A DNA stretch of 64,000 bases from contig CAVYIK010000003.1 of NCBI GenBank assembly GCA_963768625.1, forward strand, positions 518,715 through 582,714, given 5' to 3'. The translations under genes were made by a program, and so were the position numbers. The notes beneath the pieces are model-generated. The model saw only the letters and a program-made list of their open reading frames with translations, was not told where the DNA came from and did no database searches. The DNA comes from an uncultured bacterium. GTDB lineage: Bacteria; Patescibacteriota; Minisyncoccia; UBA6257; 2-01-FULL-56-20. Below, piece by piece: positions 9,315-54,850 of the stretch (the stretch's first letter is position 1; every line of letters starts with the position of its first letter).

Positions 9315-10228
9315 AGCGATTTCACCGTTTTCTGGATGCCTTCCTTGAGGAGCGTTTTCGGCGTCCAGCCGAGCAACCGCTTTGCCTTCGCGAAGCTCAT
9401 CGAGATCCGCCTCACTTCTCCTTTCCGCCGCGGGGTGTAGCGCGGCTTCTTTTTGAAACCAATGGCCGCAGCAAGCGCTTTGAAAATATAACCGTCGGAA
9501 GTTTCGTGGTTCGAGGAGATGTTCACGATCTCCCCCGCGCCGCGCCGCAAACCCAGAAGATTGGCGTGCGCGACGTCCTCGACGTACACGTAATCCCGCG
9601 TCTTCTTCCCGTCGCCGAAGATGACGGGGATCGCATCGTGCCGCATCTGGTGGATGAAGATCGGGAAGATGCCGGCCCCGCCCTGCGGATGTTGGCGCGG
9701 CCCGTAGACGTTCGCATAGCGGAAAATGAGATAAGGAATGCCATAAGCGCCGCAATAGTAGGCGATCATTTGCTCGTCGATGTACTTTGAAAGCGCATAT
9801 GGAGAGAGCGGCTGTGGAAGAGTGAACTCGTCGGCGGGCAGCTTTTTAGGGTTGCCGTAGATCGCGCCGCCCGTGGATGAAAAGAGGAACTTTTTCTTCT
9901 TGCCCCCGGATTTTGCGAACGCAAGGATCACGTTCAAAGTGCCCGTCACATTGTTCGCGAACGTTTCCGCGGGCTTCTTCACAGATTCGGTCACACTGAT
10001 GAACGCAGCATGGTGGCTCACGGCATCGGGCCGTTCCTTGCGGAAGATGCGGTCGAGCGTGGCCGCGTTCCGGATGTCGGCTTTATAGAACTTCGCCTTT
10101 GCGGGGACATTGGCCGGAGATCCTTGGGAAAGGTTGTCGATGACGACAACCTTATGGCCGGCCTTCACGTACGCTTCCGCGACATGCGAGCCGATGAATC
10201 CTGCGCCGCCGGTAACAATTATTTTCAT
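9311..10228 (-). CDS. NAD-dependent sugar epimerase/dehydratase (SDR)
   Basis: MKIIVTGGAGFIGSHV Rossmann motif and a YxxxK context (PYALSK). Confidence 0.85.
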   Translation of the reverse strand: MKIIVTGGAGFIGSHVAEAYVKAGHKVVVIDNLSQGSPANVPAKAKFYKADIRNAATLDRIFRKERPDAVSHHAAFISVTESVKKPAETFANNVTGTLNVILAFAKSGGKKKKFLFSSTGGAIYGNPKKLPADEFTLPQPLSPYALSKYIDEQMIAYYCGAYGIPYLIFRYANVYGPRQHPQGGAGIFPIFIHQMRHDAIPVIFGDGKKTRDYVYVEDVAHANLLGLRRGAGEIVNISSNHETSDGYIFKALAAAIGFKKKPRYTPRRKGEVRRISMSFAKAKRLLGWTPKTLLKEGIQKTVKSL

Positions 10229-10231
10229 ATG

Positions 10232-11569
10232 TTATTTTGGATTGATGAAGATCGACTTGAGTGTTTTAAGGATGATAGCGAGATCGAGGATGGGAGAGCG
10301 GTTCTTCAGATAGTATACATCGTATTGGAGCTTTTCTTTGACGTCCTCCGTCGTGAGGTCGGCGCGGTGGTGGATCTGCGCCCAGCCGGTCACGCCGGGC
10401 GTGACGAGCAGCCGCACGTCGTAAAAGGGGATCCGCACCTTCAGTTTCTCAACGATCTCCGGCCGCTCCGGGCGCGGCCCCACGAACGAAAGGTCGCCTT
10501 TCACGATGTTCCAGAGCTGGGGAAGTTCGTCAAGATGCGAAGCACGGAGCACCTTGCCGACAGGCGTCACGCGCGCATCGTTTTTCGCGGCCCATTGTGC
10601 CCCGTTCCGTTCCGCATCCGCCCGCATCGTGCGGAACTTGTAGAGCGTAAAGGTGCGATTACTCCTGCCTATCCGCGCTTGCTTATAGATAGCGGGGCCG
10701 CGTGAAGTGGCCTTTACGATAAATGCGATCAGGATCTCGATGGGGAGGAGTACAATGCCGATCAGGACCGCCGCCAAAAATTCGATCGAGCGCTTGAAGG
10801 GATCGTAGAACCGCGCCACATTCTCGATGTTCTCGAGGAACCACGTTTCCCCGAGCTCGCCGAGAGGGATTTTCCGCATGATGGATTCGTAGAAACTTTC
10901 AACGTCCGCGATCAATATTCCGTTGCCGAAAAGGCGGTACAGGACGGCGGCGAGCGAGTTTTTTTGCTTGAACTCCCGCGGGACCACGACGAGGTTCGCG
11001 CCATGCTCCCGTACGGCGGTCTCGAGCACTCCAGGCGACTGGTATGCCGTTTCTTCTTTGATGCGCGCCGTCACGGCATAGCCGAGCTGCTTGTTCTCCG
11101 CAATGGTCCTTTCGATCTCCGTGGCCGCAGGCCCGTCTCCTACAAGAAACACTTTGTTCGGCGCCTCGCCCGTTTCCGTCGCACGGTTCCATGCGCGGCG
11201 CCAGGAGAGTTCGATCATGGCGAAGATCACGATGAAAAGTATCAAATTGGTCTTCGGCGCGATGCCGAAAGAGGGGATGAGATAGAAAAGGAGAATGGCG
11301 ACCACGGCGTTCGCGACGAGCGAGAGCGCAAGTGTCTTTAGGAAATCGATGTTGTTGCGAAGGCGGCGGAGGTCGTAGAGGCCCGCGATATAGAAGATAA
11401 GGAGCCAGGGGATGAAAATGATGGTGAAGGGGGTGGCATGGACATCCAGGAACTCCTGATAGAAGCTGCCTCCGTAGCGCAGGAGGAGCGTCAAAAGGAG
11501 CGCGGCATAGAGGGCCACGATGTCGCCCAGCAGCAGGAGCAGTACGGTTGCTTTACGCTTAAGCACCAT
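10232..11569 (-). CDS. polyprenyl-phosphate hexose-1-phosphate transferase (WbaP/bacterial sugar transferase)
   Basis: N-terminal TM helices plus a C-terminal bacterial sugar transferase domain (YKFRTM...DELPQLWNIVKGDLSFVGPRP). Confidence 0.85.
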   Translation of the reverse strand: MVLKRKATVLLLLLGDIVALYAALLLTLLLRYGGSFYQEFLDVHATPFTIIFIPWLLIFYIAGLYDLRRLRNNIDFLKTLALSLVANAVVAILLFYLIPSFGIAPKTNLILFIVIFAMIELSWRRAWNRATETGEAPNKVFLVGDGPAATEIERTIAENKQLGYAVTARIKEETAYQSPGVLETAVREHGANLVVVPREFKQKNSLAAVLYRLFGNGILIADVESFYESIMRKIPLGELGETWFLENIENVARFYDPFKRSIEFLAAVLIGIVLLPIEILIAFIVKATSRGPAIYKQARIGRSNRTFTLYKFRTMRADAERNGAQWAAKNDARVTPVGKVLRASHLDELPQLWNIVKGDLSFVGPRPERPEIVEKLKVRIPFYDVRLLVTPGVTGWAQIHHRADLTTEDVKEKLQYDVYYLKNRSPILDLAIILKTLKSIFINPK

Positions 11570-20980: not shown

Positions 20981-21065
20981 GGAGGCGTCGCATAGTGGCC
21001 TAGTGCGTCCGCTTGGAAAGCGGATATGCCGAAAGGCATCAGAGGTTCGAATCCTCTCGCCTCCG
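20981..21065 (+). tRNA. tRNA-Ser(GGA)
   Basis: Hand-folded. Acceptor GGAGGCG/CGCCTCC, anticodon loop TTGGAAA, long variable arm, T-arm GAGGTTCGAATCCTC. No encoded CCA. Confidence 0.9.
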
Positions 21066-21188
21066 CCCGATAGTGCAGCGGTTCGAGAGACCTTCCGGCC
21101 TCGGTTTTTGTTATCTTTTTGAAACGCAGTTCAGGCGACGAAAGTCGGCAGGTGTCTAGGATTCGAACCGATGAATTTCTAGATAACT

Positions 21189-22635: not shown

Positions 22636-22711
22636 GTAGCGATAACCCAAACAGGCTTTGGAAGGAGCCCTTCTTAGTACTCCTTCCAAAGCCTGTTTGG
22701 GTTATCGCTAC
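22636..22711. repeat. conserved-loop hairpin family, member a (32-bp perfect stem, 12-nt loop CCCTTCTTAGTA)
   Basis: GTAGCGATAACCCAAACAGGCTTTGGAAGGAG / CTCCTTCCAAAGCCTGTTTGGGTTATCGCTAC read directly. It lies between convergent genes. Confidence 0.85.
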
Positions 22712-32832: not shown

Positions 32833-34113
32833 ATGGATATCGTGGCGTTCGGAAGGGCGTTTCTTGGGATGACGATGGCATTTCACATTTTTTTCGCGCT
32901 TTTCGGCGTGGGGATCCCGCTCATGATCTCACTCGCCGAACTTACGAGCATTCTGAAGAAGGATGCCGCGTTCACGGCGATGGCGCGGCGCTGGACGTTC
33001 GCGATGGTGACCCTTTTTGTGGCAGGCGCCATTTCCGGAACCATCATTGCGGTGGTCTTCGCCGTGCTCCTGCCGCCGTTCATGGCGTTCATAAGCAAAG
33101 TGGTCATTCTGCCGTTCTATATGGAAACCTTCGCGTTCTTTATTGAAGCGATCTTCCTCGGGATATATGCGTACACATGGGATACATTCAAGAGCCGCTG
33201 GACGCACTGGCTCACGTCACTGCCTATCGTCGTAGGGTCGCTCGCTTCGGCGTTCTTCATCACGACCGTGAACGCGTTCATGACCGCGCCGCAGGGATTC
33301 ACGTATCAAAACGGCGCGATTTCGAACGTAGACCAGTGGAAGGCAATGTGGAACGCGGCTGTTCCCACGCGCACGGGCCACTCCATCCTTTCCTACTATG
33401 CGACGACGGCGTTCGTCTTTGCGGCGGTCGCGGCAGCGCAATTTCTTTGGGGCAAAAAGAATGCGGCGGACGAGGCCGGACAGCGCTCTCACCGTAAAAT
33501 GATGGCATTCTCACTCTTGCTCGCCTTTACATTTTCTATCGCGGTGGTCGCAACAGGGGACAGCGCGTCGCGCTATGTCGCAAGTAACGAGCCGGAGAAA
33601 TTCGCCGCGGCGGAGGCCGTGATGCACACGGGAGCGAACGCCCCGCTCATAATTGGTGGCATCGCGGTTCCGGATGCATTAAGTTTTCTCGTCGGTGGGA
33701 CGGCGGGAACGTTGGTGAAGGGTCTTGATGCCTTTGATCCGACGACCTGGCCGCCGCTCATCATTCATTATTTCTTTGACGGGATGGTCGTGATCGGCAT
33801 CCTCATGGCGCTCGTCCCCATCCTCTTTTTCGTCTCGTGGCGCTACCATCCGAAGCGCATATTCCACGGCGTTCTTATGTGGCTCGTTTTTGTAACGGGC
33901 ATTCTTTCTATAATCGCCGTCGAACTCGGCTGGATGCTCACGGAGATTGGCAGGCAGCCGTACGTGGTCCAGGGGATCATGCTTACAAAAGACGCCTTCA
34001 CCAATTCTCCAGCGGTCATCGCGTACGCAGTGGCATTCCCGATATTTTACGTGGTGCTCGCGGTCGTCACGGGATGGATCCTCAAAACCCATTACGGGAA
34101 AGACCATGATTGA
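32833..34113 (+). CDS. cydA: cytochrome bd-type quinol oxidase subunit I
   Basis: Start trimmed to MDIVAFGRAFLGMTMAFHIFFALFGVGIPL. C-terminal GWMLTEIGRQPYVVQG is the CydA signature. Confidence 0.9.
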   Translation: MDIVAFGRAFLGMTMAFHIFFALFGVGIPLMISLAELTSILKKDAAFTAMARRWTFAMVTLFVAGAISGTIIAVVFAVLLPPFMAFISKVVILPFYMETFAFFIEAIFLGIYAYTWDTFKSRWTHWLTSLPIVVGSLASAFFITTVNAFMTAPQGFTYQNGAISNVDQWKAMWNAAVPTRTGHSILSYYATTAFVFAAVAAAQFLWGKKNAADEAGQRSHRKMMAFSLLLAFTFSIAVVATGDSASRYVASNEPEKFAAAEAVMHTGANAPLIIGGIAVPDALSFLVGGTAGTLVKGLDAFDPTTWPPLIIHYFFDGMVVIGILMALVPILFFVSWRYHPKRIFHGVLMWLVFVTGILSIIAVELGWMLTEIGRQPYVVQGIMLTKDAFTNSPAVIAYAVAFPIFYVVLAVVTGWILKTHYGKDHD

Positions 34114-35056
34114 GTATCTCGCCGCCATCCTTCCTCTCATTTCGCTTTTTATTTACGCCGTCCTTTTGTCGATTGAGTGCGGGACCGCGATCTTCGTGAA
34201 CGTTCCGGCATTATTGGGGGACGAAGAGCTGATCCGTGCCTATATCAATCCTGTATGGGAGACCACGAATGTGTTTCTTGTATTCGCATTCGTTTCGGTC
34301 ATTGCATTCTTCCCTGGCGCGCTCCCCGTATGGGGGCACTCGCTCGTCGTCCCATTCTTCTTCTTCCTCGCATGCATGGGGCTGCGCGTGATCGGCATGC
34401 TTTATGTTTTTTATAAAGGAGGAAAAAGCCGCGCGATGAAATTATTGTTCCTCGTTGCCGCTCTCGCGGCACCCGCGGTGCTCGCGGGCGGTGTTCTGCC
34501 GTATCTTCTGACCGGGAACATGCCCTATGGTCCCATGGAGTGGATCCTCGCGGCCGACTGCGCGGTGCTCGCAGTATTCTTCCTGCTTTTTATCTCGTCT
34601 TCTTTCTTTGCCTATCTCGCAGACCGCAAGGGGTTGCGCGCGGCCACGCACCTGCGTTCGTCCGCGGTCGTCTCGTTCCTCTTCTTCGTCGCCGCGCTTG
34701 CGTTTTCCTTCCCTATCGTCGGATCTGCGGTACCACACCTCATCCAAAGCATGCTCGCGTACCTCCCGGCATTCTGCGCGGTTATCATCCTTGAATTCAT
34801 CATTATGGTCCTCGCGGAAGGGCGAAAAGGGGACGCAGCGCGCTTTTGGTCCGGTATCGTATTCTTCGGCTTCATATTCTTCGGCGTGGCCTTTTCGGAG
34901 CTGCCGTATCTTATCTATCCGTCCATCACCATCTACAACACGTTCGCTGATCCCGGGGCCGCGACTGCCATGCTCGGCGTCTTCGTCGTGGGCGCGCTCA
35001 TCACGTTGCCCGCGCTCGCGCTGCTCTATTACCTTTTTGCATATAAGAAAAATTAA
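34106..35056 (+). CDS. cydB: cytochrome bd-type quinol oxidase subunit II
   Basis: ATGA-coupled to cydA. Polytopic 316 aa, starting MIEYLAAILPLISLFIY. Confidence 0.8.
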   Translation: MIEYLAAILPLISLFIYAVLLSIECGTAIFVNVPALLGDEELIRAYINPVWETTNVFLVFAFVSVIAFFPGALPVWGHSLVVPFFFFLACMGLRVIGMLYVFYKGGKSRAMKLLFLVAALAAPAVLAGGVLPYLLTGNMPYGPMEWILAADCAVLAVFFLLFISSSFFAYLADRKGLRAATHLRSSAVVSFLFFVAALAFSFPIVGSAVPHLIQSMLAYLPAFCAVIILEFIIMVLAEGRKGDAARFWSGIVFFGFIFFGVAFSELPYLIYPSITIYNTFADPGAATAMLGVFVVGALITLPALALLYYLFAYKKN

Positions 35057-35068
35057 CGGCGCCCCCGT

Positions 35069-35572
35069 ATGGTCGTAGACGTAATCACTCTCATCGTCCT
35101 ACTTGCCACGGCCTATCTTCTCATCCGGCCCATCGTGCGCGGGGCGATATTTTTCCCTTCAAGCGTCCGCAACGTGGAGGTCATGATGAACGTGGCGTCG
35201 CTCCGTCGGGGCGACCGGATCGCCGACCTCGGTTCGGGCGACGGCCGCATCCTGATCGCCTGCGCCCAACAAGGGATACGCGCGGAAGGATATGAGATCA
35301 ATCCAATCCTCGTTTTCCTCTCGCGCCGGGCGATCCGGAAGGCCCGCGTGGAACATCTCGCCGCGGTCCACTGGAAAAGTTTCTGGCGCGTCGACCTCGC
35401 GCCTTTTGACACCGTATTCGTATACGGCATGGACCATATCATGGGCGGCCTTCAGAAAAAGCTTGAGCACGAGCTGCGGCTCGGAACGAAGGTCATCGCC
35501 AACGTTTTCCCGTTCCCCGGATGGACGCCCGCGGCCCAGCGCGGGAACGTATATCTTTATGAAAGAAGCTGA
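35069..35572 (+). CDS. class I SAM-dependent methyltransferase with N-terminal TM helix
   Basis: IADLGSGDGRILIACAQQG is SAM-binding motif I. Confidence 0.7.
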   Translation: MVVDVITLIVLLATAYLLIRPIVRGAIFFPSSVRNVEVMMNVASLRRGDRIADLGSGDGRILIACAQQGIRAEGYEINPILVFLSRRAIRKARVEHLAAVHWKSFWRVDLAPFDTVFVYGMDHIMGGLQKKLEHELRLGTKVIANVFPFPGWTPAAQRGNVYLYERS

Positions 35573-35875
35573 CTACTTTATCTCAACGACGATGTTGTAG
35601 GAGTCGGTCGTTCCGATATTTTCCGCTTCATGATCTACAGCGGGAGCCCAGAATATATCGCCCGCCCTGAATTTTTTCTCTTTCCACTTGCCACCCGGAG
35701 ATCTTAACTTCAGTTGCGCATCATTTACCACGTAGACCACGCGGTCGGGATGATGGTGTAGCTTCGCGACCCCGCCGACTTTAACGATGCTCCTTAAGAC
35801 CCTCACCTTCTCGTTCTCTAAAACCAGCGTATAGATATGAGGGGCTACAACAATGGGATCGGTTGGGGCATTCAT
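35573..35875 (-). CDS. cupin domain protein
   Basis: 100 aa. HHHPDRVVYVV ... WAPAVDHEAEN is a two-motif cupin-like pattern. Confidence 0.65.
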   Translation of the reverse strand: MNAPTDPIVVAPHIYTLVLENEKVRVLRSIVKVGGVAKLHHHPDRVVYVVNDAQLKLRSPGGKWKEKKFRAGDIFWAPAVDHEAENIGTTDSYNIVVEIK

Positions 35876-35899
35876 GTTTTAAACGTTAACATATCCGTT

Positions 35900-36179
35900 T
35901 GCGGTCGTTTTTGGATAAAATCCGAACTTATTTCAGCAGTATATCGTAGTCCGCTACCCCTTCAAATACCCCTTCAAATTGCCTGCGACGAATTGAAGGG
36001 GTAGCGGATCGAGATTGACCTGCAAACGTTGGCCTTTCCGAGCATCGCCCGACAAAATCCAAACTCCTACTTCACTCCGCTAGACCCCCTCCGAAATGGT
36101 GTGCTCAGCCCCTCAGCCGCTCGCTATCGCTCGGGCTTCGGGGCTTCGCGTATGGCGCGCCCAAATTCCTCCCCCACAA
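35900..36179. repeat. inverted repeat A, left copy (280 bp)
   Basis: Reverse complement of 39232..39500. Identical by eye except for one indel patch (33 nt here versus 22 nt in the right copy, around 36111-36143). Confidence 0.95.
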
Positions 36180-36465
36180 CCCCTCCTTTGGGGCGCGCTA
36201 AGAGGTGGTAACTCCACGTTTTGCGACCTTATTCCTGTCTGTAGGGTTAATTCCGCGTCTTTTAGTGCCTGACCTCATCAAGAAAACCGTTTCTTGTCCT
36301 TGCCCCAGCCATCCCATTGCGCGGGCAAAAGGCTATAAAACTCCCAATAAATCAGGCCATATCTATCTTCCTCACGAGTTATCCACAGGGGAGCACTTTA
36401 CAAGAATTGAATAGTAGTCTAGGATCATACTATCAGCTAACAAACTATCAACCAATATATAAAAC

Positions 36466-39189
36466 ATGGAAAAAGACCAAAAAATCGAGACCATAGATAT
36501 CACGCCAGATAAGAGCATCTACCATAAGATCGGGGAGGCAAACTATTCGATTTCCGATGCGCTCGCAGAGTTGGTAGATAACTCTATTGATGCCGCGAAC
36601 GAAGACGGCGTAGAGATATTCATAGTCTTAGATAAAAAAGATGGGAAGATCATTATTGAAGATAATGGGCAGGGAATGAACAAAGAGATAGCCTCGAAGA
36701 GTTTGGTGCTTGCCTATTCTAAGAAGCATGACGCGCTAGGCGAATTCGGCTTGGGTCTAAAGTCGGCCTGCACAAGTCTCGGAACAATTTTTACTATAAC
36801 GAGCACTCCAAAAGGATCAGAAGAAAAATATACCCTCGAATATAATAAAGAACAATTTCTACAATCGAGCGATTGGAGTAAATACCCCCTCACGATTGTA
36901 AAAGCCCCAAAGAATGAACACGGAACAAAAATAGAAATCAGCGATCTGAAAATAAAATTATACGACGCACTTGTTACACGCCTTAAGGACGATCTAGCAA
37001 AAAGATACGGCCCTTACATTGAGCACAACAACGTTGTCATTAAGGTCGGCCTTAAGAGAGAGACCGCCAAGCCGTGCGTGCCTAGCGAGAATAAGCTAGT
37101 CGCTGATACAAAGAAGGATTTTTCGTACATGCTTTCAAAGGGAAGCACTATTACGGGTTGGTACGGCCTTTTGGAAGTTGGATCGCAAAAGCAAAGCGGC
37201 TTCAATATGTTCCGAAGGGGACGTTTGATAAGAGCGTCTGAGAAACTTGGTTATAACTATCACCCGCATCTTATGAGCGTTACTGGCGAAATAAACTTAG
37301 ACTCCGTACCAGTAACCCACAACAAAAGAGAGTTCATCGTTGAATCGCCCGAATTCAAGGAATTTATTGAAAATTTCTGGGGCGATCAGACCGAAAAATA
37401 TTTAGGTTACAAGGCCAAGGGGAAGATTGACGAGATAACGAAAACCGCCAGAGATCGATCGAACCAAGAAAAAGCGGATAGTATGCCGACCGAGAAGAAG
37501 GAAACGATAAAGAATAACTTATTGAACGCCCTCAATCGCCTCGATGAGTTTAAGGAGTTAGCCTACCCAGATCTATACCAACCAAAGAAAAGATCCGTAA
37601 CTGGGAAAGAGGATTTGAAGGAAACCAGAGAAACCGATTTACGAGTGGCTAAAGAAGAGGAAGTTACCCCCACAAAGGAGGAGGAGGAAAGGGATCACAG
37701 GACGCCCAAAAAGACCCAGCCCAAGACGGCCAAATTTATAATGGTCGGGGGCAAGAAATTTAAGTTTGACTTCTTTCTAAAGAATCTAGGAAACGACGGC
37801 GTTGATAAGGAGACAATTATTAACGAAGACAATGTTATTGAAATATACATCAATACAGGGTTCAAGGGTTACAGCTTGACGAAAGATACGGATTTTTATT
37901 CCACCTTCCACATAGCGGAAGCTATTGCCGAACTCTACGTCAAAGAAGCTAAACAAAAAGTAGAGAGGGTTTTTGAGCTACGAAACAGCCTCATATATGA
38001 AGTCGCGTCTCTAATATACGAGGAGGAAGAATATAAGAGACTTGAGAAAACTGAGAGGGAATTAACTGCGGTAACCGAGAAGAAGAGGGAGCTTGAAGAA
38101 AAAGAGAATAAGAACAAGTCTATAGAAAACGATTATAAAAACATGAATTCACGTCAGACCATCCTACAAAAAATATGTCAGTTAAGGGGCACGAATGTCG
38201 TCGCTTACGTTACTAGCGACCGGCCGTTTATCAACGCTCCGATGGAGCCTAATGATATCAGGATATTCAAGGATCATTTAGATCAATTTACCGATAGAAA
38301 AAATATAGACTTGTTTCTTATTAGCAATGGTGGCACCTCAACAACCGCATGGGCTTTGATAAATCTCTTAAGAGAGTATACGGATAAGATCTCCGTTATT
38401 ATCCCTTATAAAGGATTTAGTTGCGCAACATCCGTAGCGATAGGTGCAGACGAAATTGTGATGTCCAAAATGGGCACTCTTGGCCCGATTGATCCCTCTG
38501 TATCTAACGCCTTTAATCCTTCTATAAACGGGCAGCTAGTTCCTATTTCTGTAGAGGACGTATCTTCCTATAATCAGCTTGCGAGAAAGATTTTCGGAAT
38601 AAAGGATCAGAAGCAAATAGTCAGTGTGTTCGAAAAGCTCTCTACGGATATCAAGCCATTAGCATTGGGTAATGCCTATAGGCATTATATGAAGGCTCGC
38701 GACGATGCTCAGAAACTTCTTTCTTTACATACTAAGGGTTGGCTAAAACGATTCAAGATAAAAAAGATCACAAAGACACTGGTGGAAAAGTTATATTTTC
38801 ACGGACATCATATCAATCGGAATGAAGCTAAGGACATTGGCTTAAATGTGATAGAGCCGAGTGCTGAGATGGAAACATTAATGTGGAATCTTTATAAGGA
38901 GTATGAATCTGATATGCAATTTAAGGTTCCTTACAAGGATGAACCGACGGCCGGAAGAGATATACCGCTAACCTACATAGAAAGCGTCGATAAGAGTGAT
39001 AAGAGAATTATCAAACAAAAAATTACGCAGATTAATTTTGTTGGTTTGGGCGTTCCTTTCTTTACCACATTTAACAACGCGCCAGCATTCTTAGTGAACG
39101 GTCAGTTCAGCCCGATTAGAAGCGAGGGAGCCGTTATAACATTAAATAGTCAGCCTTACGATAAAGTAGAATCTGTTTTATGGGCTTAA
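36466..39189 (+). CDS. 907-aa fusion: N-terminal GHKL (HATPase_c_3/MORC-like) ATPase, charged coiled-coil linker, C-terminal ClpP-fold SDH/S49-like serine protease
   Basis: Bergerat motifs: ELVDNSIDA (aa 35-43), DNGQGM (66-71) and GEFGLGLKS (92-100). The middle is KE-rich and coiled-coil (aa 330-555). The C-terminus reads DLFLISNGG...ISVIIPYKGFSCATSVAIGADEIVM...LGPIDPS. From memory this aligns to the serine dehydrogenase proteinase family pattern (HTPGG...AMSGGT...ADEIVM...LGPVDP). AT-rich codon usage. Confidence 0.85.
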   Translation: MEKDQKIETIDITPDKSIYHKIGEANYSISDALAELVDNSIDAANEDGVEIFIVLDKKDGKIIIEDNGQGMNKEIASKSLVLAYSKKHDALGEFGLGLKSACTSLGTIFTITSTPKGSEEKYTLEYNKEQFLQSSDWSKYPLTIVKAPKNEHGTKIEISDLKIKLYDALVTRLKDDLAKRYGPYIEHNNVVIKVGLKRETAKPCVPSENKLVADTKKDFSYMLSKGSTITGWYGLLEVGSQKQSGFNMFRRGRLIRASEKLGYNYHPHLMSVTGEINLDSVPVTHNKREFIVESPEFKEFIENFWGDQTEKYLGYKAKGKIDEITKTARDRSNQEKADSMPTEKKETIKNNLLNALNRLDEFKELAYPDLYQPKKRSVTGKEDLKETRETDLRVAKEEEVTPTKEEEERDHRTPKKTQPKTAKFIMVGGKKFKFDFFLKNLGNDGVDKETIINEDNVIEIYINTGFKGYSLTKDTDFYSTFHIAEAIAELYVKEAKQKVERVFELRNSLIYEVASLIYEEEEYKRLEKTERELTAVTEKKRELEEKENKNKSIENDYKNMNSRQTILQKICQLRGTNVVAYVTSDRPFINAPMEPNDIRIFKDHLDQFTDRKNIDLFLISNGGTSTTAWALINLLREYTDKISVIIPYKGFSCATSVAIGADEIVMSKMGTLGPIDPSVSNAFNPSINGQLVPISVEDVSSYNQLARKIFGIKDQKQIVSVFEKLSTDIKPLALGNAYRHYMKARDDAQKLLSLHTKGWLKRFKIKKITKTLVEKLYFHGHHINRNEAKDIGLNVIEPSAEMETLMWNLYKEYESDMQFKVPYKDEPTAGRDIPLTYIESVDKSDKRIIKQKITQINFVGLGVPFFTTFNNAPAFLVNGQFSPIRSEGAVITLNSQPYDKVESVLWA

Positions 39190-39204
39190 TTCTAAAAATT
39201 TATT

Positions 39205-39233
39205 TCACGGCCATGCGGCCGTGAGCTATTTTT
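39205..39233 (+). terminator. rho-independent terminator of the 907-aa gene
   Basis: CACGGCC-ATGC-GGCCGTG followed by AGCTATTTTT, 16 nt after the stop codon. Confidence 0.6.
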
Positions 39234-39500
39234 GTGGGGGAGGAATTTGGGCGCGCCATACGCGAAGCCCCGAAGCCAGCAGGCTGAGGGGCTGAGCACA
39301 CCATTTCGGAGGGGGTCTAGCGGAGTGAAGTAGGAGTTTGGATTTTGTCGGGCGATGCTCGGAAAGGCCAACGTTTGCAGGTCAATCTCGATCCGCTACC
39401 CCTTCAATTCGTCGCAGGCAATTTGAAGGGGTATTTGAAGGGGTAGCGGACTACGATATACTGCTGAAATAAGTTCGGATTTTATCCAAAAACGACCGCA
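39232..39500. repeat. inverted repeat A, right copy (269 bp)
   Basis: Reverse complement of 35900..36179 (see the left copy). Confidence 0.95.
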
Positions 39501-39588
39501 GACTAATTCGATTTTTATTTTCCACCGCGAGCGGCCACGCTTCGCGTGGCATGAAATCTAGCTTTCCCTCGCCGAGCCGGAAGTTCGA
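39501..39588. repeat. inverted repeat B, left copy (88 bp): an inverted duplicate of the recombinase gene 3' end
   Basis: The reverse complement is 88/88 identical to 41143..41230 (checked base by base). Confidence 0.95.
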
Positions 39589-39645
39589 CGCCGTAGACGG
39601 CGGTTCGCTGTTCGCTCACACCAATCTTTTCGCTTTTTACCAAAG

Positions 39646-39654
39646 TGGTATACT
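39646..39654 (+). promoter_or_regulatory. possible extended -10 promoter element upstream of the recombinase gene
   Basis: TGGTATACT (TGn + TATACT). It is flanked by a direct repeat CACCAATCTT at about 39618 and about 39662. No convincing -35. Confidence 0.3.
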
Positions 39655-39786
39655 AGAGGCGCACCAATCTTGAAGCCCGAAATTTTTGTATAACACGGGT
39701 TACACACCCAAACGGGCGATTCTGTTCAATTTTGCTTTCGGGCAAGGTTGGTGCAACAGGGTCGCCCTTTTGAGTTTTTGAGAACT

Positions 39787-41394
39787 ATGGATACTCAACC
39801 CAAAAAGTTTTTTCTCTACGCCCGCAAGTCCACCGACACGGAGGAACGTCAGGTGCGGAGTATTGACGACCAGATCGCGGAGCTTCACGAGTTGGCGGCG
39901 AGAGAGGGCATAGAAATATTAAGAACGTATACCGAGAAGCAGACGGCGAAAGCTCCGGGTCGTCCCATATTCAACGAGATGCTTGCGGACATAGAGAAGG
40001 GCCTTGCCGATGGCATCTTGGCGTGGCATCCCGACAGGTTAGCACGTAACTCCGTGGACGGCGGCAAGATTATATGGCTTCTCGACATCGGCAAGCTCCA
40101 CCATCTCAAATTCTCAACTTTTTGGTTTGAGAACACGCCGCAGGGTAAGTTCATGCTACAGATAGCGTTTGGCCAATCGAAATACTACGTTGATAATCTC
40201 TCCGAAAATATCCGGCGAGGGGTGCGGCAAAAATTGAAGAATGGTTTATGGCCTAACATGGCTCCGCTCGGCTACATGAATAGTGCGGCCAAATCCATCG
40301 TAGTTGATCCGCCAAAGGCGTTGCTCATTAAAAAGTCATTCGAATTGTACGCCTCCGGCAGATACTCCCTCGCCTTGTTGCGAAATACTGTAAACGGGCT
40401 TGGCCTTGTGGGACGCCGGAGCCAAACGCTATCCATATCGAACTATCAATATATTCTCAAAAACCCGTTCTATTGCGGCCTCATCCGCTATAACGGCGAG
40501 ATATACGAGGGCAGGCACGAACCCATCATATCCAAGAAACTTTTTGACGAGGTGCAAAGTGTCATGTCGCGCAAGAGCAAGCCGAGCAAAAAAATCGCCA
40601 AGTATTTCGTTTTCCGCGGCCTCATCCATTGCGCCGAGTGCGGTTGCCTCATCACCGCCGAGATACAGAAAGGCCACACCTACTACCGATGCACCAAACG
40701 GAAAACGGCTTGCTCGCAGAAATATATTAGGGAAGAATCCTTGCGCGATCTTTTCAAGCAAGAGATACAAAAAGTTTCTTTGCCCTCCGATTGGGCGGCA
40801 ACAATGGTTGCCGAGCTGGAAAACGAGCGAGCGACGAACGCCCAATCTGCGGACTCCTTTGCTCAAAAGCTGAAAGATAAAATGGTAGTCCTTGATACGA
40901 AGCTATCCCGCCTGATGGACGGCTATCTTGCGGACGCAGTCGCGCTCGAAGAATATCAGATAGCCAAGTCAAAAATGGTATCAGAAAAACAGCTTCTCAA
41001 GGACAAGATATCGGCTTTTGAGCGGAAAGGCGTTTCATGGTTCGAACCTGCCATACAGTTCATAAAAGAAGCGGAATCGGCCTCCACTTTGGCAAAAAGC
41101 GATGATAACAAATCCATACGGGAATTCGCCGAAAAGATTGGTTCGAACTTCCGGCTCGGCGAGGGAAAGCTAGATTTCATGCCACGCGAAGCGTGGCCGC
41201 TCGCGGTGGAAAATAAAAATCGAATTAGTCTGCGGAGGCGGAAGGATTCGAACCTTCGAAGGGATTTCTCCCTTAACATCTTAGCAGGATGCTGCCTTAA
41301 GCCACTCGGCCACGCCTCCGTGTGCCCTAAGCTTATACGACGGGGCGCGGGCTTGCAAGTGATTTGCGCGGAAGGAAAATTAAAGGTAAACTGA
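39787..41394 (+). CDS. large serine recombinase; the ORF 3' end runs through repeat B and antisense across tRNA-Ser
   Basis: FFLYARKSTDTEERQ (catalytic Ser15 at 39829-31) and DRLARN. Recombinase domain, zinc ribbon CAECGC...YYRCTKRKTAC, then a coiled-coil. ATG at 39787 is preferred over the TTG at 39748. Confidence 0.9.
   Translation: MDTQPKKFFLYARKSTDTEERQVRSIDDQIAELHELAAREGIEILRTYTEKQTAKAPGRPIFNEMLADIEKGLADGILAWHPDRLARNSVDGGKIIWLLDIGKLHHLKFSTFWFENTPQGKFMLQIAFGQSKYYVDNLSENIRRGVRQKLKNGLWPNMAPLGYMNSAAKSIVVDPPKALLIKKSFELYASGRYSLALLRNTVNGLGLVGRRSQTLSISNYQYILKNPFYCGLIRYNGEIYEGRHEPIISKKLFDEVQSVMSRKSKPSKKIAKYFVFRGLIHCAECGCLITAEIQKGHTYYRCTKRKTACSQKYIREESLRDLFKQEIQKVSLPSDWAATMVAELENERATNAQSADSFAQKLKDKMVVLDTKLSRLMDGYLADAVALEEYQIAKSKMVSEKQLLKDKISAFERKGVSWFEPAIQFIKEAESASTLAKSDDNKSIREFAEKIGSNFRLGEGKLDFMPREAWPLAVENKNRISLRRRKDSNLRRDFSLNILAGCCLKPLGHASVCPKLIRRGAGLQVICAEGKLKVN
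41143..41230. repeat. inverted repeat B, right copy (inside the recombinase gene 3' end)
   Basis: See 39501..39588. Confidence 0.95.
41233..41319 (-). tRNA. tRNA-Ser(GCT)
   Basis: Hand-folded on the minus strand. Acceptor GGAGGCG/CGCCTCC, anticodon loop CTGCTAA, long variable arm, T-arm GAAGGTTCGAATCCTTC. No encoded CCA. Confidence 0.9.
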
Positions 41395-41406
41395 TTGGTA
41401 CGCAAC

Positions 41407-42036
41407 ATGTCAGACACCATTAAAAATCTTCAATGGCGGTACGCGACGCAGGTCTATGACACGTCGAAGAAGCTGACGGACGCGCAGCGCGAGATCATCA
41501 TGGAAGCGCTCCGCCTTTCCCCGTCGTCCTTCGGACTCCAGCCGTGGAAGTTTATCCACGTGACGGATGCCGCGCTCCGCGCGAAGCTCCGCGCGGCGGC
41601 GTGGGATCAGCCGAAGGTCACGGAGGCATCGGATCTCTTTGTCCTTGCGGTGCGGACAGACCTGGATGAGGCCTATGTGGACCATTACCTTTCCGTGGTG
41701 GCAAAGGACCGCGGCGTCTCTCCGGGATCGCTCAAGGGTTACAAAGATATGCTCATGGGAGCGATCAATAAGCCGAAAAGCGACCTCATAGAATGGTCGA
41801 GTAAGCAGGTCTATCTCGCCCTCGGTGTGACGCTCGCCGCCGCCGCAGAGAATCGGATCGACGCTTCGCCGATGGAAGGTTTCGATACGAAGCAATTTGA
41901 CGAGGTCCTCGGGCTCCCGCAGCTCAATCTCGCATCGCGCGTGATGCTCGCAGTCGGATTCCGGTCGCCGGCGGACAAGAACCAGAAATTTCCCAGATCG
42001 CGCTTCAGCAAAGAAGAAATTTTTATCGAACGATAG
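41407..42036 (+). CDS. nitroreductase family NAD(P)H oxidoreductase
   Basis: RYATQVYD...[13 protein letters not shown]... and ...IDASPMEGF are the typical nitroreductase-fold motifs. Confidence 0.8.
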
Positions 42037-43946: not shown

Positions 43947-44018
43947 GGCCTGGTCGCCAAGAGGTAAGGCAAGGGTCTGCAAAACCCTTACACGCGGGTT
44001 CGATTCCCGCCCAGGCCT
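43947..44018 (+). tRNA. tRNA-Cys(GCA)
   Basis: Acceptor GGCCTGG/CCAGGCC, anticodon loop CTGCAAA, T-arm GCGGGTTCGATTCCCGC. Confidence 0.9.
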
Positions 44019-44026
44019 CACGGATA

Positions 44027-44096
44027 CAGCAGGAAGAAAGTGGCTTCGGACAGAGTACTCGGAAGGGCTCTGTCCGAAGCCACTTTCTTCCTGCTG
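44027..44096. repeat. conserved-loop hairpin family, member b (29-bp perfect stem, loop TACTCGGAAGGG)
   Basis: CAGCAGGAAGAAAGTGGCTTCGGACAGAG / CTCTGTCCGAAGCCACTTTCTTCCTGCTG. It starts 8 nt after tRNA-Cys. Confidence 0.85.
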
Positions 44097-44334
44097 CCTT
44101 GGTGATGTTTGAGCGGGAATCGAACGAGGAAGGGGGTCGGGGAAACCCTAGGTTTCCCCGTGTAGGAGGGTCGCGTTCTTATGCGACAGTTCGGCACCGA
44201 GGATGCCGAAAGTGCAGGCCGATTTTATCGGCCGAGCAGTGAGATTCCCGCCCACTCCAACCACTTGCATTTTCCAGCAATTCCGATAGCATCCTAGCTA
44301 GTAGCAGGTCATTGATTCAGAAAGGATAAATGCC

Positions 44335-53870: not shown

Positions 53871-53942
53871 GCGCATGTAGTTCAGTGGTAGAACGCGTTC
53901 CTGATAAGAACGAGGTCGTAGGTTCGATTCCTACCATGCGCA
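53871..53942 (+). tRNA. tRNA-Ile(GAT)
   Basis: Acceptor GCGCATG/CATGCGC, anticodon loop CTGATAA, T-arm GTAGGTTCGATTCCTAC. Confidence 0.9.
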
Positions 53943-53951
53943 CCGCCAGAA

Positions 53952-54003
53952 CAAAAAGGGTTTGGAAAGAGTACTCGGAAGGGCTCTTCCCGAACCCTTT
54001 TTG
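53952..54003. repeat. conserved-loop hairpin family, member c (20-bp stem with one A/C mismatch and one G/T pair, loop TACTCGGAAGGG)
   Basis: CAAAAAGGGTTTGGAAAGAG / CTCTTCCCGAACCCTTTTTG. It starts 9 nt after tRNA-Ile. Confidence 0.75.
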
Positions 54004-54064
54004 CTTTTCTTGATGGAATCGAACGAGGCTTGTAGACAGCGCTTACATGTGCCTCGCCGCACTA

Positions 54065-54774: not shown

Positions 54775-54850
54775 TGCGCAGGCATAACGCAGGGGCTTGG
54801 AAGGAGCCCTTCTGAGTACTCCTTCCAAGCCCCTGCGTTATGCCTGCGCA
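54775..54850. repeat. conserved-loop hairpin family, member d (32-bp perfect stem, loop CCCTTCTGAGTA)
   Basis: TGCGCAGGCATAACGCAGGGGCTTGGAAGGAG / CTCCTTCCAAGCCCCTGCGTTATGCCTGCGCA. Confidence 0.85.

Follow-up and report, generated by a model that had tools for sequence, protein, structure and literature searches.

Long inverted repeats as duplicated attachment-site arms in a probable serine recombinase island at a tRNA-Ser gene of an uncultured Patescibacteriota bacterium

What are the long inverted repeats that enclose a single cargo gene in this DNA, and why do their two copies agree almost base for base? The stretch in question (hereafter the window) comprises 64,000 nt of contig CAVYIK010000003.1 from an uncultured bacterium of the Patescibacteriota. 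An earlier note, made from the letters, had suggested that the repeats, here called A and A', could be binding arms of a recombinase, substrates of inversion or the ends of a passenger cassette. We find it well supported that they are real and represent two copies of one attachment-site arm of a small mobile island. The region 35900-41235 is probably a 5.3-kb island that has entered the 3' end of a tRNA-Ser(GCT) gene and is organized around the gene for a large serine recombinase (LSR); that the repeats are duplicated attP arms of a tRNA-inserted LSR island with an internal inverted attP is well supported. The features of the region are collected in Table 1.

Self-comparison of the whole window and of the section 34000-41500 reproduced the reverse complementarity of A and A'. 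The two copies pair perfectly over 222 nt (35897-36118 with 39282-39503) and over another 46 nt (36134-36179 with 39232-39277), and pairwise alignment from the TG at 35900 to position 36179 shows them to be identical except for a single indel patch, which measures 15 nt on the left and 4 nt on the right (39278-39281). The earlier note had recognized this one patch and its net difference of 11 nt, but had drawn it too wide, at 33 versus 22 nt. Likewise, the palindrome with a 27-nt spacer is present in both copies as described, with arms of 16 nt instead of 15 nt (35950-35965 with 35993-36008, and 39392-39407 with 39435-39450). The 9-mer CCCCTTCAA, said to occur three times per repeat copy, does so: there are six occurrences in the 64 kb, all within A and A', where 0.53 would be expected by chance.

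A and A' are half of a larger structure. A second inverted pair, B and B', adjoins them and surrounds the LSR gene; its copies, 93 nt long, are 100% identical. Degenerate homology continues further on, between 39630-39648 and 41084-41102, and the B repeat of a relative with a 92%-identical recombinase, L003, retains 93 + 59 nt. This pair had escaped the earlier note, as had the tRNA-Ser gene, the entry of the recombinase open reading frame (ORF) into the repeat and a second hairpin. With both pairs in view, three junctions can be compared, namely host-core-A, A'-CCGCA-B and B'-core-tRNA. Read on the other strand, the middle one is B'-TGCGG-A, and the junction alignment shows it to be an exact hybrid of the left half of attR and the right half of attL. 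The alignment gives good support for the correspondence of the three junctions to attL, a complete inverted attP and attR, respectively. The island thereby differs from the rule of one attP per element, with a second complete attP, in inverted orientation, inside it at 39232-39588. The earlier statement that there is no target-site duplication holds in the transposon sense; a 5-bp core, TGCGG/CCGCA, is found instead. Neither does the island resemble a DDE transposon or insertion sequence, since Pfam revealed no transposase domain and the flanks have only the att core in common. The G+C content is 40-49% over 36000-41000 and ~55% in the flanks.

Table 1. Coordinates of the island's features in the window and, in the last two rows, of the corresponding features in related loci.
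Feature	Position	Strand	Remarks
Inverted repeat A, left copy, P' arm of the attachment site	35900-36179	+	homologous arms in 30/41 evaluable related loci
attL core TGCGG	35900-35904	+	junction of host flank and arm A; junction alignment
Last 14 codons (SFLDKIRTYFSSIS) and stop of the recombinase ORF in the B'-A join	35905-35949	+	
TCCGAA, candidate binding motif of the zinc-ribbon domain	35921-35926	+	16 nt from the core
Palindrome hairpin, 16-nt arms, 27-nt loop	35950-36008		CCCCTTCAA three times; begins directly after the tail stop codon
Patch GCTCGCTATCGCTCG	36119-36133	+	sole difference between A and A'
Second hairpin, GC-rich stem	36154-36198		loop TTCCTCCCCCACAACCCCTCC (reverse complement GGAGGGGTTGTGGGGGAGGAA); once in the window
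Cargo segment X, low G+C	36180-39231	+	G+C 40-46%, flanks ~55%
Cargo gene, 907 aa	36466-39189	+	GHKL/MORC-like ATPase fused to an SDH-type ClpP-like serine protease
Terminator-like hairpin	39204-39225		follows the cargo gene; T runs on both strands
Inverted repeat A', right copy	39232-39500	-	contains the palindrome copy 39392-39450
Core of the internal inverted attP, A'-CCGCA-B	39496-39500	-	reverse complement reads B'-TGCGG-A
Inverted repeat B, left copy	39496-39588	-	inverted copy of the last 31 recombinase codons before the core
Recombinase upstream region	39589-39786	+	TGGTATACT at 39646-39654, candidate extended -10 element
LSR gene up to the core, 483 aa	39787-41235	+	Pfam Resolvase 2.8e-23, Recombinase 2.4e-14, Zn_ribbon_recom 9.4e-10
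Inverted repeat B', right copy, recombinase 3' coding end and P arm	41143-41235	+	
attR core TGCGG	41231-41235	+	overlaps the tRNA acceptor end and discriminator base
tRNA-Ser(GCT), integration target, 3' end abutting B'	41232-41319	-	ARAGORN; Rfam tRNA model 56.7 bits
Second hairpin, examples in relatives	L026 8214-8266; L007 6832-6883		
Double-tRNA modules	L015 53-2044; L102 33-1940; L170 9706-11531		facing tRNAs of the same amino acid

We then asked how widespread this arrangement is. Homologs of the recombinase numbered 7753 at a maximum e-value of 1e-20; the few matches with a named source and most of the fetched genome records are metagenome-assembled genomes of Patescibacteria (candidate phyla radiation). 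Loci were collected by exact-protein look-up (2), from species-representative genomes (80) and from metagenomes (80), and the 157 distinct ones (cited below by L numbers) were scored by tblastn, ARAGORN and self-BLAST. A minus-strand tRNA gene lies directly downstream of the recombinase in 108 of 126 loci (Ser 89, Gln 15, Asn 2, Asp 2). Inverted repeats of the B type surround the gene in 72 of the 82 evaluable loci (median 121 nt, 99.2% identity), and a cargo-enclosing A pair abuts the left B arm in 30 out of 41 (median 200 nt, 99.5% identity). In the window and 18 other elements with clean junctions, alignment revealed three hybrid junctions with matching halves and a shared core, which in these 18 is GCGG at tRNA-Ser and GCTG at tRNA-Gln genes. 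The layout spans recombinases that are only 52-60% identical and four tRNA target types; A arms in the survey are 79-382 nt long, with variable inner boundaries. A viral collection held almost no family members, with 2 close matches among 5. The double inverted-repeat layout is, hence, a trait of the family, shared by ~30 related islands in uncultured ultra-small (Patescibacteria-type) bacteria.

The survey also bears on the possibility that one repeat copy was made by a chimeric or fold-back join during assembly. Repeats of this kind do break short-read assemblies, and many related contigs end within them or consist of the recombinase segment alone, as expected because the repeats exceed the assembler k-mer; one contig, L165, looks like a fold-back. 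Nevertheless, an artifact is extremely improbable for the window, because the indel patch sets its two copies apart and ~30 independent assemblies, produced in different studies, show the same layout. Moreover, each copy adjoins different unique sequence.

If A is an attachment-site arm, its half-site should show the geometry reported for LSRs, in which the second DNA-binding-domain motif lies 5 bp nearer to the center in attB than in attP (PMC11722253). The motif TYCGAA is found at +16 from the core in 18 of 19 A arms, while a TTCGAA-type T-loop motif is located at +11 in every tRNA arm that matched the search pattern (14 of 19, including the window and L047 with corrected values). The offset difference between attP and attB is therefore the expected 5 bp for the right half-sites, which this comparison covers. 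The earlier suggestion of recombinase arms agrees with this geometry and with the outer repeat ends, which lie at the att core. Together, these positions support the view that arm A behaves as an LSR attP half-site. As a separate observation, the window contains a second tRNA-Ser gene (GGA) at 20981-21067, ~20 kb away on the opposite strand, whose 3' end (GGTTCGAATCC...CTCCGCC) has the same core and T-loop motif, which makes it a potential unoccupied target for the internal attP.

The recombinase itself has the features of the LSR group. Its N-terminal resolvase catalytic domain, with the nucleophilic serine in a YxRxS context, is marked by Y11, R13, K14 and S15, all invariant in 29 aligned sequences, and its zinc ribbon by C282, C285 and C309, likewise invariant, and C302, present in at least 90% of the same set. 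From the zinc ribbon to the GSNF motif, there would be room for a coiled-coil insertion of the kind that controls synapsis. In the integrated state, the ORF runs through the tRNA gene in antisense up to 41394, adding 52 non-conserved read-through residues, and other integrated copies also end in non-conserved tails of variable length of the RRxDSNPR type. A different end emerges if B' is joined to A. In this configuration, 14-19 further codons follow before a stop at A position 50-67 in all 18 elements from which the tail could be extracted. For the window, the tail SFLDKIRTYFSSIS has its stop codon at 35947-35949 and is present in both A copies, unjoined to the gene body; with its own tail, as opposed to the genomic read-through version, the recombinase would have ~497 aa and end in ...ISLRSFLDKIRTYFSSIS. 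Since its last 14 codons lie beyond the core, in A, the gene can be full-length only where B' is joined to A.

This tail is conserved, in 18 of 19 elements, in the pattern [CS]x[LF]xx[IV]R[TM][YF]Fxx(N/H)P. Over its first 13 codons in 19 aligned arms, the entropies at the three codon positions are 0.73/0.51/1.11, and the tail frame is interrupted by stops in 0 of the 19 arms, the other two frames in 10 and 12. These values indicate that the tail is under constraint at the protein level. The in-frame ORF and its conserved tail across B'-core-A thus point to B'-A as a functional, expressed junction. Upstream of the gene, TGGTATACT is conserved in the window, L001, L002 and L003 and is a candidate promoter element. 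Apart from this, each A copy holds an outward-facing promoter-like match, TTGAAG-16-TATACT (39435-39462, plus strand; 35938-35965, minus strand), of which the left one faces a host cupin gene that starts 25 nt past the core. We gave these matches no weight as promoters, because consensus promoter matches in the region are no more common than in shuffled sequence.

Comparing elements allowed us to look into the dynamics of the repeats. Between the window and L003, ~12 of the 93 positions of B differ, but the two copies inside each of them are 100% identical; in L043 and L078, both A and B are likewise homogenized within the element. Because the copies are identical within and different between elements, their near-identity reflects continuing copy correction rather than recent duplication. 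The layout is ancestral to recombinases of 52-60% identity, while the copies within an element are ~100% identical; of the two origins that the earlier note had left open, ongoing gene conversion is therefore favored. The arms are also exchanged between elements. L043 and L054 are 93% identical in the recombinase segment and 96% in B, but only 62% in A, although the A copies of L054 match each other, showing on comparison of these two loci that an A-cargo-A' module and the recombinase module have been reshuffled against each other. Compared with L017 and L060, L083 has its homologous restriction-modification cargo turned around as one block, while A'-B-recombinase remains collinear. Reassortment, block inversion between elements and the occurrence of both cargo orientations fit the earlier proposals that the repeats are passenger-cassette ends and inversion substrates.

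Three loci lack an adjacent cargo module altogether. In L015 and L102, the recombinase module is flanked by two different tRNA-Ser genes, both of which adjoin a B copy, and in L170 by two tRNA-Gln genes. Such a double-tRNA module is the product expected from recombination of the internal attP with a second attB, and hence the internal attP has apparently been used, reacting with a second tRNA gene in a way that would cause chromosomal inversion or deletion. In the tandem arrays L008, L032, L073 and L083, the cargo and recombinase segments are separated by complete attP copies that point in alternating directions, and the upstream recombinase carries a proper tail. L083 had been considered as a circular form with two attP sites; however, one of its three A copies, the third, has no more than 93% identity to the others, and we assigned L083 to a tandem array of related elements. 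A recombinase gene with a proper tail that points away from the adjacent tRNA gene was found in L140 and possibly in L029 and L065. Recombinases of 92-93% identity to that of the window occur at other tRNA genes, in L003 at tRNA-Ser(TGA) and in P0001 with a different tRNA-antisense tail, which suggests mobility. We rejected L165 as evidence of inversion: its 2071-nt perfect terminal inverted repeats (1-2071 and 9496-11566), each with a recombinase copy, probably stem from a fold-back assembly path. Such contigs are a warning for automated annotation.

The modular behavior could also be explained by two independent terminal inverted repeat cassettes, A-cargo-A' and B-recombinase-B', which would form separate circles with palindromic junctions (A'-A or B'-B) and insert next to each other, the cargo cassette being a non-autonomous passenger of the recombinase cassette. 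Consistent with this, each segment has a perfect inverted repeat of its own at its ends, A arms are reshuffled against B arms and recombinase, the recombinase modules of L015, L102 and L170 stand without a cargo module, and the arrays resemble strings of such units. However, two cassettes would not predict a functional, expressed B'-A junction with an in-frame ORF and a conserved tail. In addition, there is no locus with a host-core-B junction, as A' or a tRNA gene (L015, L029, L065, L102, L140) always lies to the left of B, and the insertion of B-recombinase-B' into one tRNA gene would leave the double-tRNA cases unexplained. We consider this possibility unlikely.

Alternatively, an ancestral attP region may have been duplicated passively in inverted orientation and homogenized by host homologous recombination, with no role in the life cycle. 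The inner repeat boundaries are indeed arbitrary and variable in position, some elements have diverged B copies of 80-92% identity, and the role that we ascribe to the spare copy draws on comparison between elements. On the other hand, the layout was retained across recombinases of 52-60% identity and four tRNA target types, degraded copies tend to lie in loci without a detectable adjoining A pair, core, tail and both half-site arms are never missing from the duplicated block, and second tRNA genes have apparently served as recombination partners of the internal site. These observations make a passive duplication quite unlikely.

Two hairpins lie within arm A. The first, the palindrome, has a folding energy of -31.5 kcal/mol (z = -5.0), and its three CCCCTTCAA copies correspond to one 3' arm and two alternative 5' arms that arose as a 12-nt tandem duplication. 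Most other A arms possess a GC-rich hairpin of unrelated sequence in the same position after the tail stop codon. Because this position is shared while the sequence is unrelated, the most economical reading of the palindrome is a terminator-like or insulating hairpin of the full-length gene. To the earlier note, the 9-mers had looked like iterated protein-binding sites. On such a reading, the palindrome and the 9-mers would be bound by an accessory factor, a regulator or a protein of replication, and this function would keep the repeat conserved. In favor of such sites, CCCCTTCAA is confined to the repeats and far more frequent than expected by chance, and L003 differs in the loop bases but has kept the third 9-mer as well as the 16-nt arms. 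In contrast, other family members lack CCCCTTCAA and have an unrelated GC-rich hairpin at the same place after the stop, so position and structure are conserved rather than sequence. One hairpin with a duplicated 5' arm accounts for all three 9-mers, which makes binding sites the less economical reading, and Pfam detected no DNA-binding gene in the island. We consider it very improbable that iterated binding sites are what keeps the repeat conserved.

The second hairpin is complete only in the left copy, because the inner boundary at 36179/36180 falls within its loop. It is common to most elements; the loop, GGAGGGG-TNT-GGGGAGGAA, is almost invariant and occurs in either orientation, and the stem covaries, with double changes in 8 of 8 pairs. 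Most matches to the motif within 1.15 Mb of related loci fall in repeat arms next to the recombinase gene, a minority elsewhere. Rfam gave no match for the repeat region including this hairpin, and the G-rich loop motif was absent from the viral collection. A separate family of repeats, distinct from A and B, consists of four very long hairpins in the window (22636-22711, 43998-44125, 53942-54028 and 54775-54850) with arms of ~30-58 nt, two of the pairs being perfect. Their stems differ, but they have the 12-nt loop TACTNNGAAGGG in common, a pattern found four times in the window with 0.04 expected, and two of them directly follow tRNA genes (tRNA-Cys and tRNA-Ile).

With moderate confidence, we regard an LSR integrative island with a spare inverted attP and a spare gene 3' end, allowing inversion and module exchange, as the best overall explanation. 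The LSR would integrate a circular form by recombination of attP with the tRNA gene (attB). As the crossover lies within the recombinase ORF, we propose that integration replaces the conserved tail by the antisense-tRNA read-through, whereas the inverted internal copy would preserve a spare attP and a spare gene 3' end. With this spare copy, the island may be able to invert its segments, restore the full-length gene, exchange modules and react with other targets. Recombination of A with A' would flip the cargo, and that of B with B' the recombinase segment, re-joining the gene to its proper tail. Other elements or a second tRNA gene could be further reaction partners of the internal attP, which would give rise to double-tRNA modules, tandem arrays and module exchange.

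Several points weigh against this explanation. Canonical LSRs are not known to recombine attP with attL, attR or another attP; for tandem arrays and site-specific inversion, either non-canonical reactions or homologous recombination by the host would be required. If both attP sites of the circle were equally usable, the flipped isomer should be common, but L140 is the only clear case among ~150 loci (L029 and L065 being possible ones), and its B copies are just 81% alike. This rarity could be explained, for example, if isomers with an intact gene re-excise and those with a split gene are locked. The length of the A duplication, 139-434 nt, is not accounted for, as tail and half-site need only ~65 nt, nor is the role of the hairpin with the G-rich loop. 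The window encodes no candidate for a directionality factor, a group of proteins with no common fold or signature; besides the LSR and cargo genes, the island holds two short ORFs without Pfam family matches. Finally, exact-protein look-ups and a DNA search recovered no circle, empty attB or alternative isomer of the window's island, and so excision and inversion are deduced from the comparison between elements. Exact look-ups of the cargo protein and a nitroreductase led to no other long assembly, only to a 951-nt Logan contig that is broken inside the tRNA gene, and the outer 34 nt of arm A had no exact match in the metagenome collection. The nearest nitroreductase homolog with long contigs (67% identity) is non-syntenic, and hence no empty target site was obtained.

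Going further, we tentatively envisage a widespread class of LSR islands, mostly in Patescibacteria, with a self-split recombinase gene and a spare inverted attP, in which flipping of the repeats serves as a reversible lock and for the exchange of defense cassettes, although we hold this to be rather doubtful. Flipping would either re-form the full-length recombinase, making the island mobile, or truncate it, making the island fixed. Still more speculative is an extension by which a transformed single strand folds into a dumbbell that rebuilds a double-stranded attP, which would explain the copy correction of the repeats.

What the islands carry is variable. The window's cargo protein matched the Pfam families HATPase_c_3 (8e-21), SDH_protease (1e-14) and, weakly, Morc6_S5 (4e-4), and among the PADLOC defense models it gave a weak match to MzaB (3e-7); it may represent an uncharacterized defense gene. 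In related loci, the cargo between the A arms ranges from 1.25 to 7.4 kb. Among 71 proteins from 28 modules, the most common families are helix-turn-helix regulators of the C-protein type, type II/III methyltransferases and restriction enzymes, AAA_15/AAA_21 (OLD/AriA-like) ATPases, RadC and some metabolic genes. In more elements the cargo genes point away from the recombinase than toward it.

The genomes of Patescibacteria are tiny, and few routes of gene exchange are recognized in these bacteria. A very large recombinase family, with the 7753 homologs mentioned above, is here tied to short restriction-modification or defense islands at tRNA-Ser and tRNA-Gln genes. Should the layout prove functional, it would represent a naturally occurring serine-integrase system in which two attP sites are inverted and the recombinase gene splits itself. 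This raises the questions of how directionality is controlled without an obvious factor, whether the 14-residue tail is an activity switch, and whether attP recombines naturally with attP, attL or attR. The internal attP could rearrange chromosomes between tRNA genes. For genome assembly, perfect inverted repeats of 90-430 nt explain why these loci are fragmented in short-read data.

Among known systems, the large serine integrases such as phiC31, Bxb1, A118/LI and SPbeta likewise combine resolvase, recombinase and zinc-ribbon domains with short sites, a small core at attL, attP and attR, and an outer motif that is 5 bp closer to the center in the target half-site than in that of the element. 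In contrast to them, the island has a second complete, inverted attP, repeats of 93 and 280 nt where these integrases have a 50-bp site, a tRNA 3' end as target, a crossover inside the recombinase ORF and no evident directionality factor. Hin, Gin and Cin share with it a serine recombinase gene in a segment bounded by inverted repeats with crossover sites. These, however, are small, non-integrative invertases of ~190 aa with a C-terminal helix-turn-helix, sites of 26-34 bp and a Fis-dependent enhancer, whereas the island enzyme measures 483 aa up to the core and has recombinase and zinc-ribbon domains; its repeats are 93-280 nt long, the ends are att sites at a tRNA gene, and inversion is deduced between elements. 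In the yeast 2-micron plasmid, the tyrosine recombinase FLP acts on FRT sites within 599-bp inverted repeats of a replicating plasmid with an origin. The excised island, a hypothetical circle, would similarly consist of two unique segments separated by long inverted repeats with the recombinase site, and its predicted isomers and homogenized repeats are analogous, but no replication gene or origin was found in the island.

The closest parallel to a recombinase ORF that contains its own recombination site is offered by the SSV-type "suicidal" tyrosine integrases of archaea, in which integration at tRNA targets splits the integrase gene (PMC7253208). The island agrees with them in the position of the core, 14 codons before the conserved stop and inside the ORF. 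It differs in that the enzyme is a serine recombinase, Pfam having found only serine-recombinase domains and none of a tyrosine recombinase, in that only the last 14 codons are separated, and in that a spare inverted gene 3' end is kept beside the gene, which has not been reported for SSV-type elements. Tycheposons are small tRNA islands with variable, often defense or niche-related cargo in streamlined genomes without classical transfer machinery, and most use tyrosine recombinases, a minority LSRs (bioRxiv 10.1101/2020.12.28.424599). A search of this preprint by terms returned no inverted-repeat modules, internal attP or site-crossing recombinase ORF, and the searchable literature on Patescibacteria and serine integrases yielded no description of the double inverted-repeat layout. 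The island thus belongs to a known kind, the integrative islands with a serine integrase, and what is unusual throughout its family is the internal inverted attP within long homogenized repeats, the ORF spanning the site and the targeting of tRNA 3' ends.

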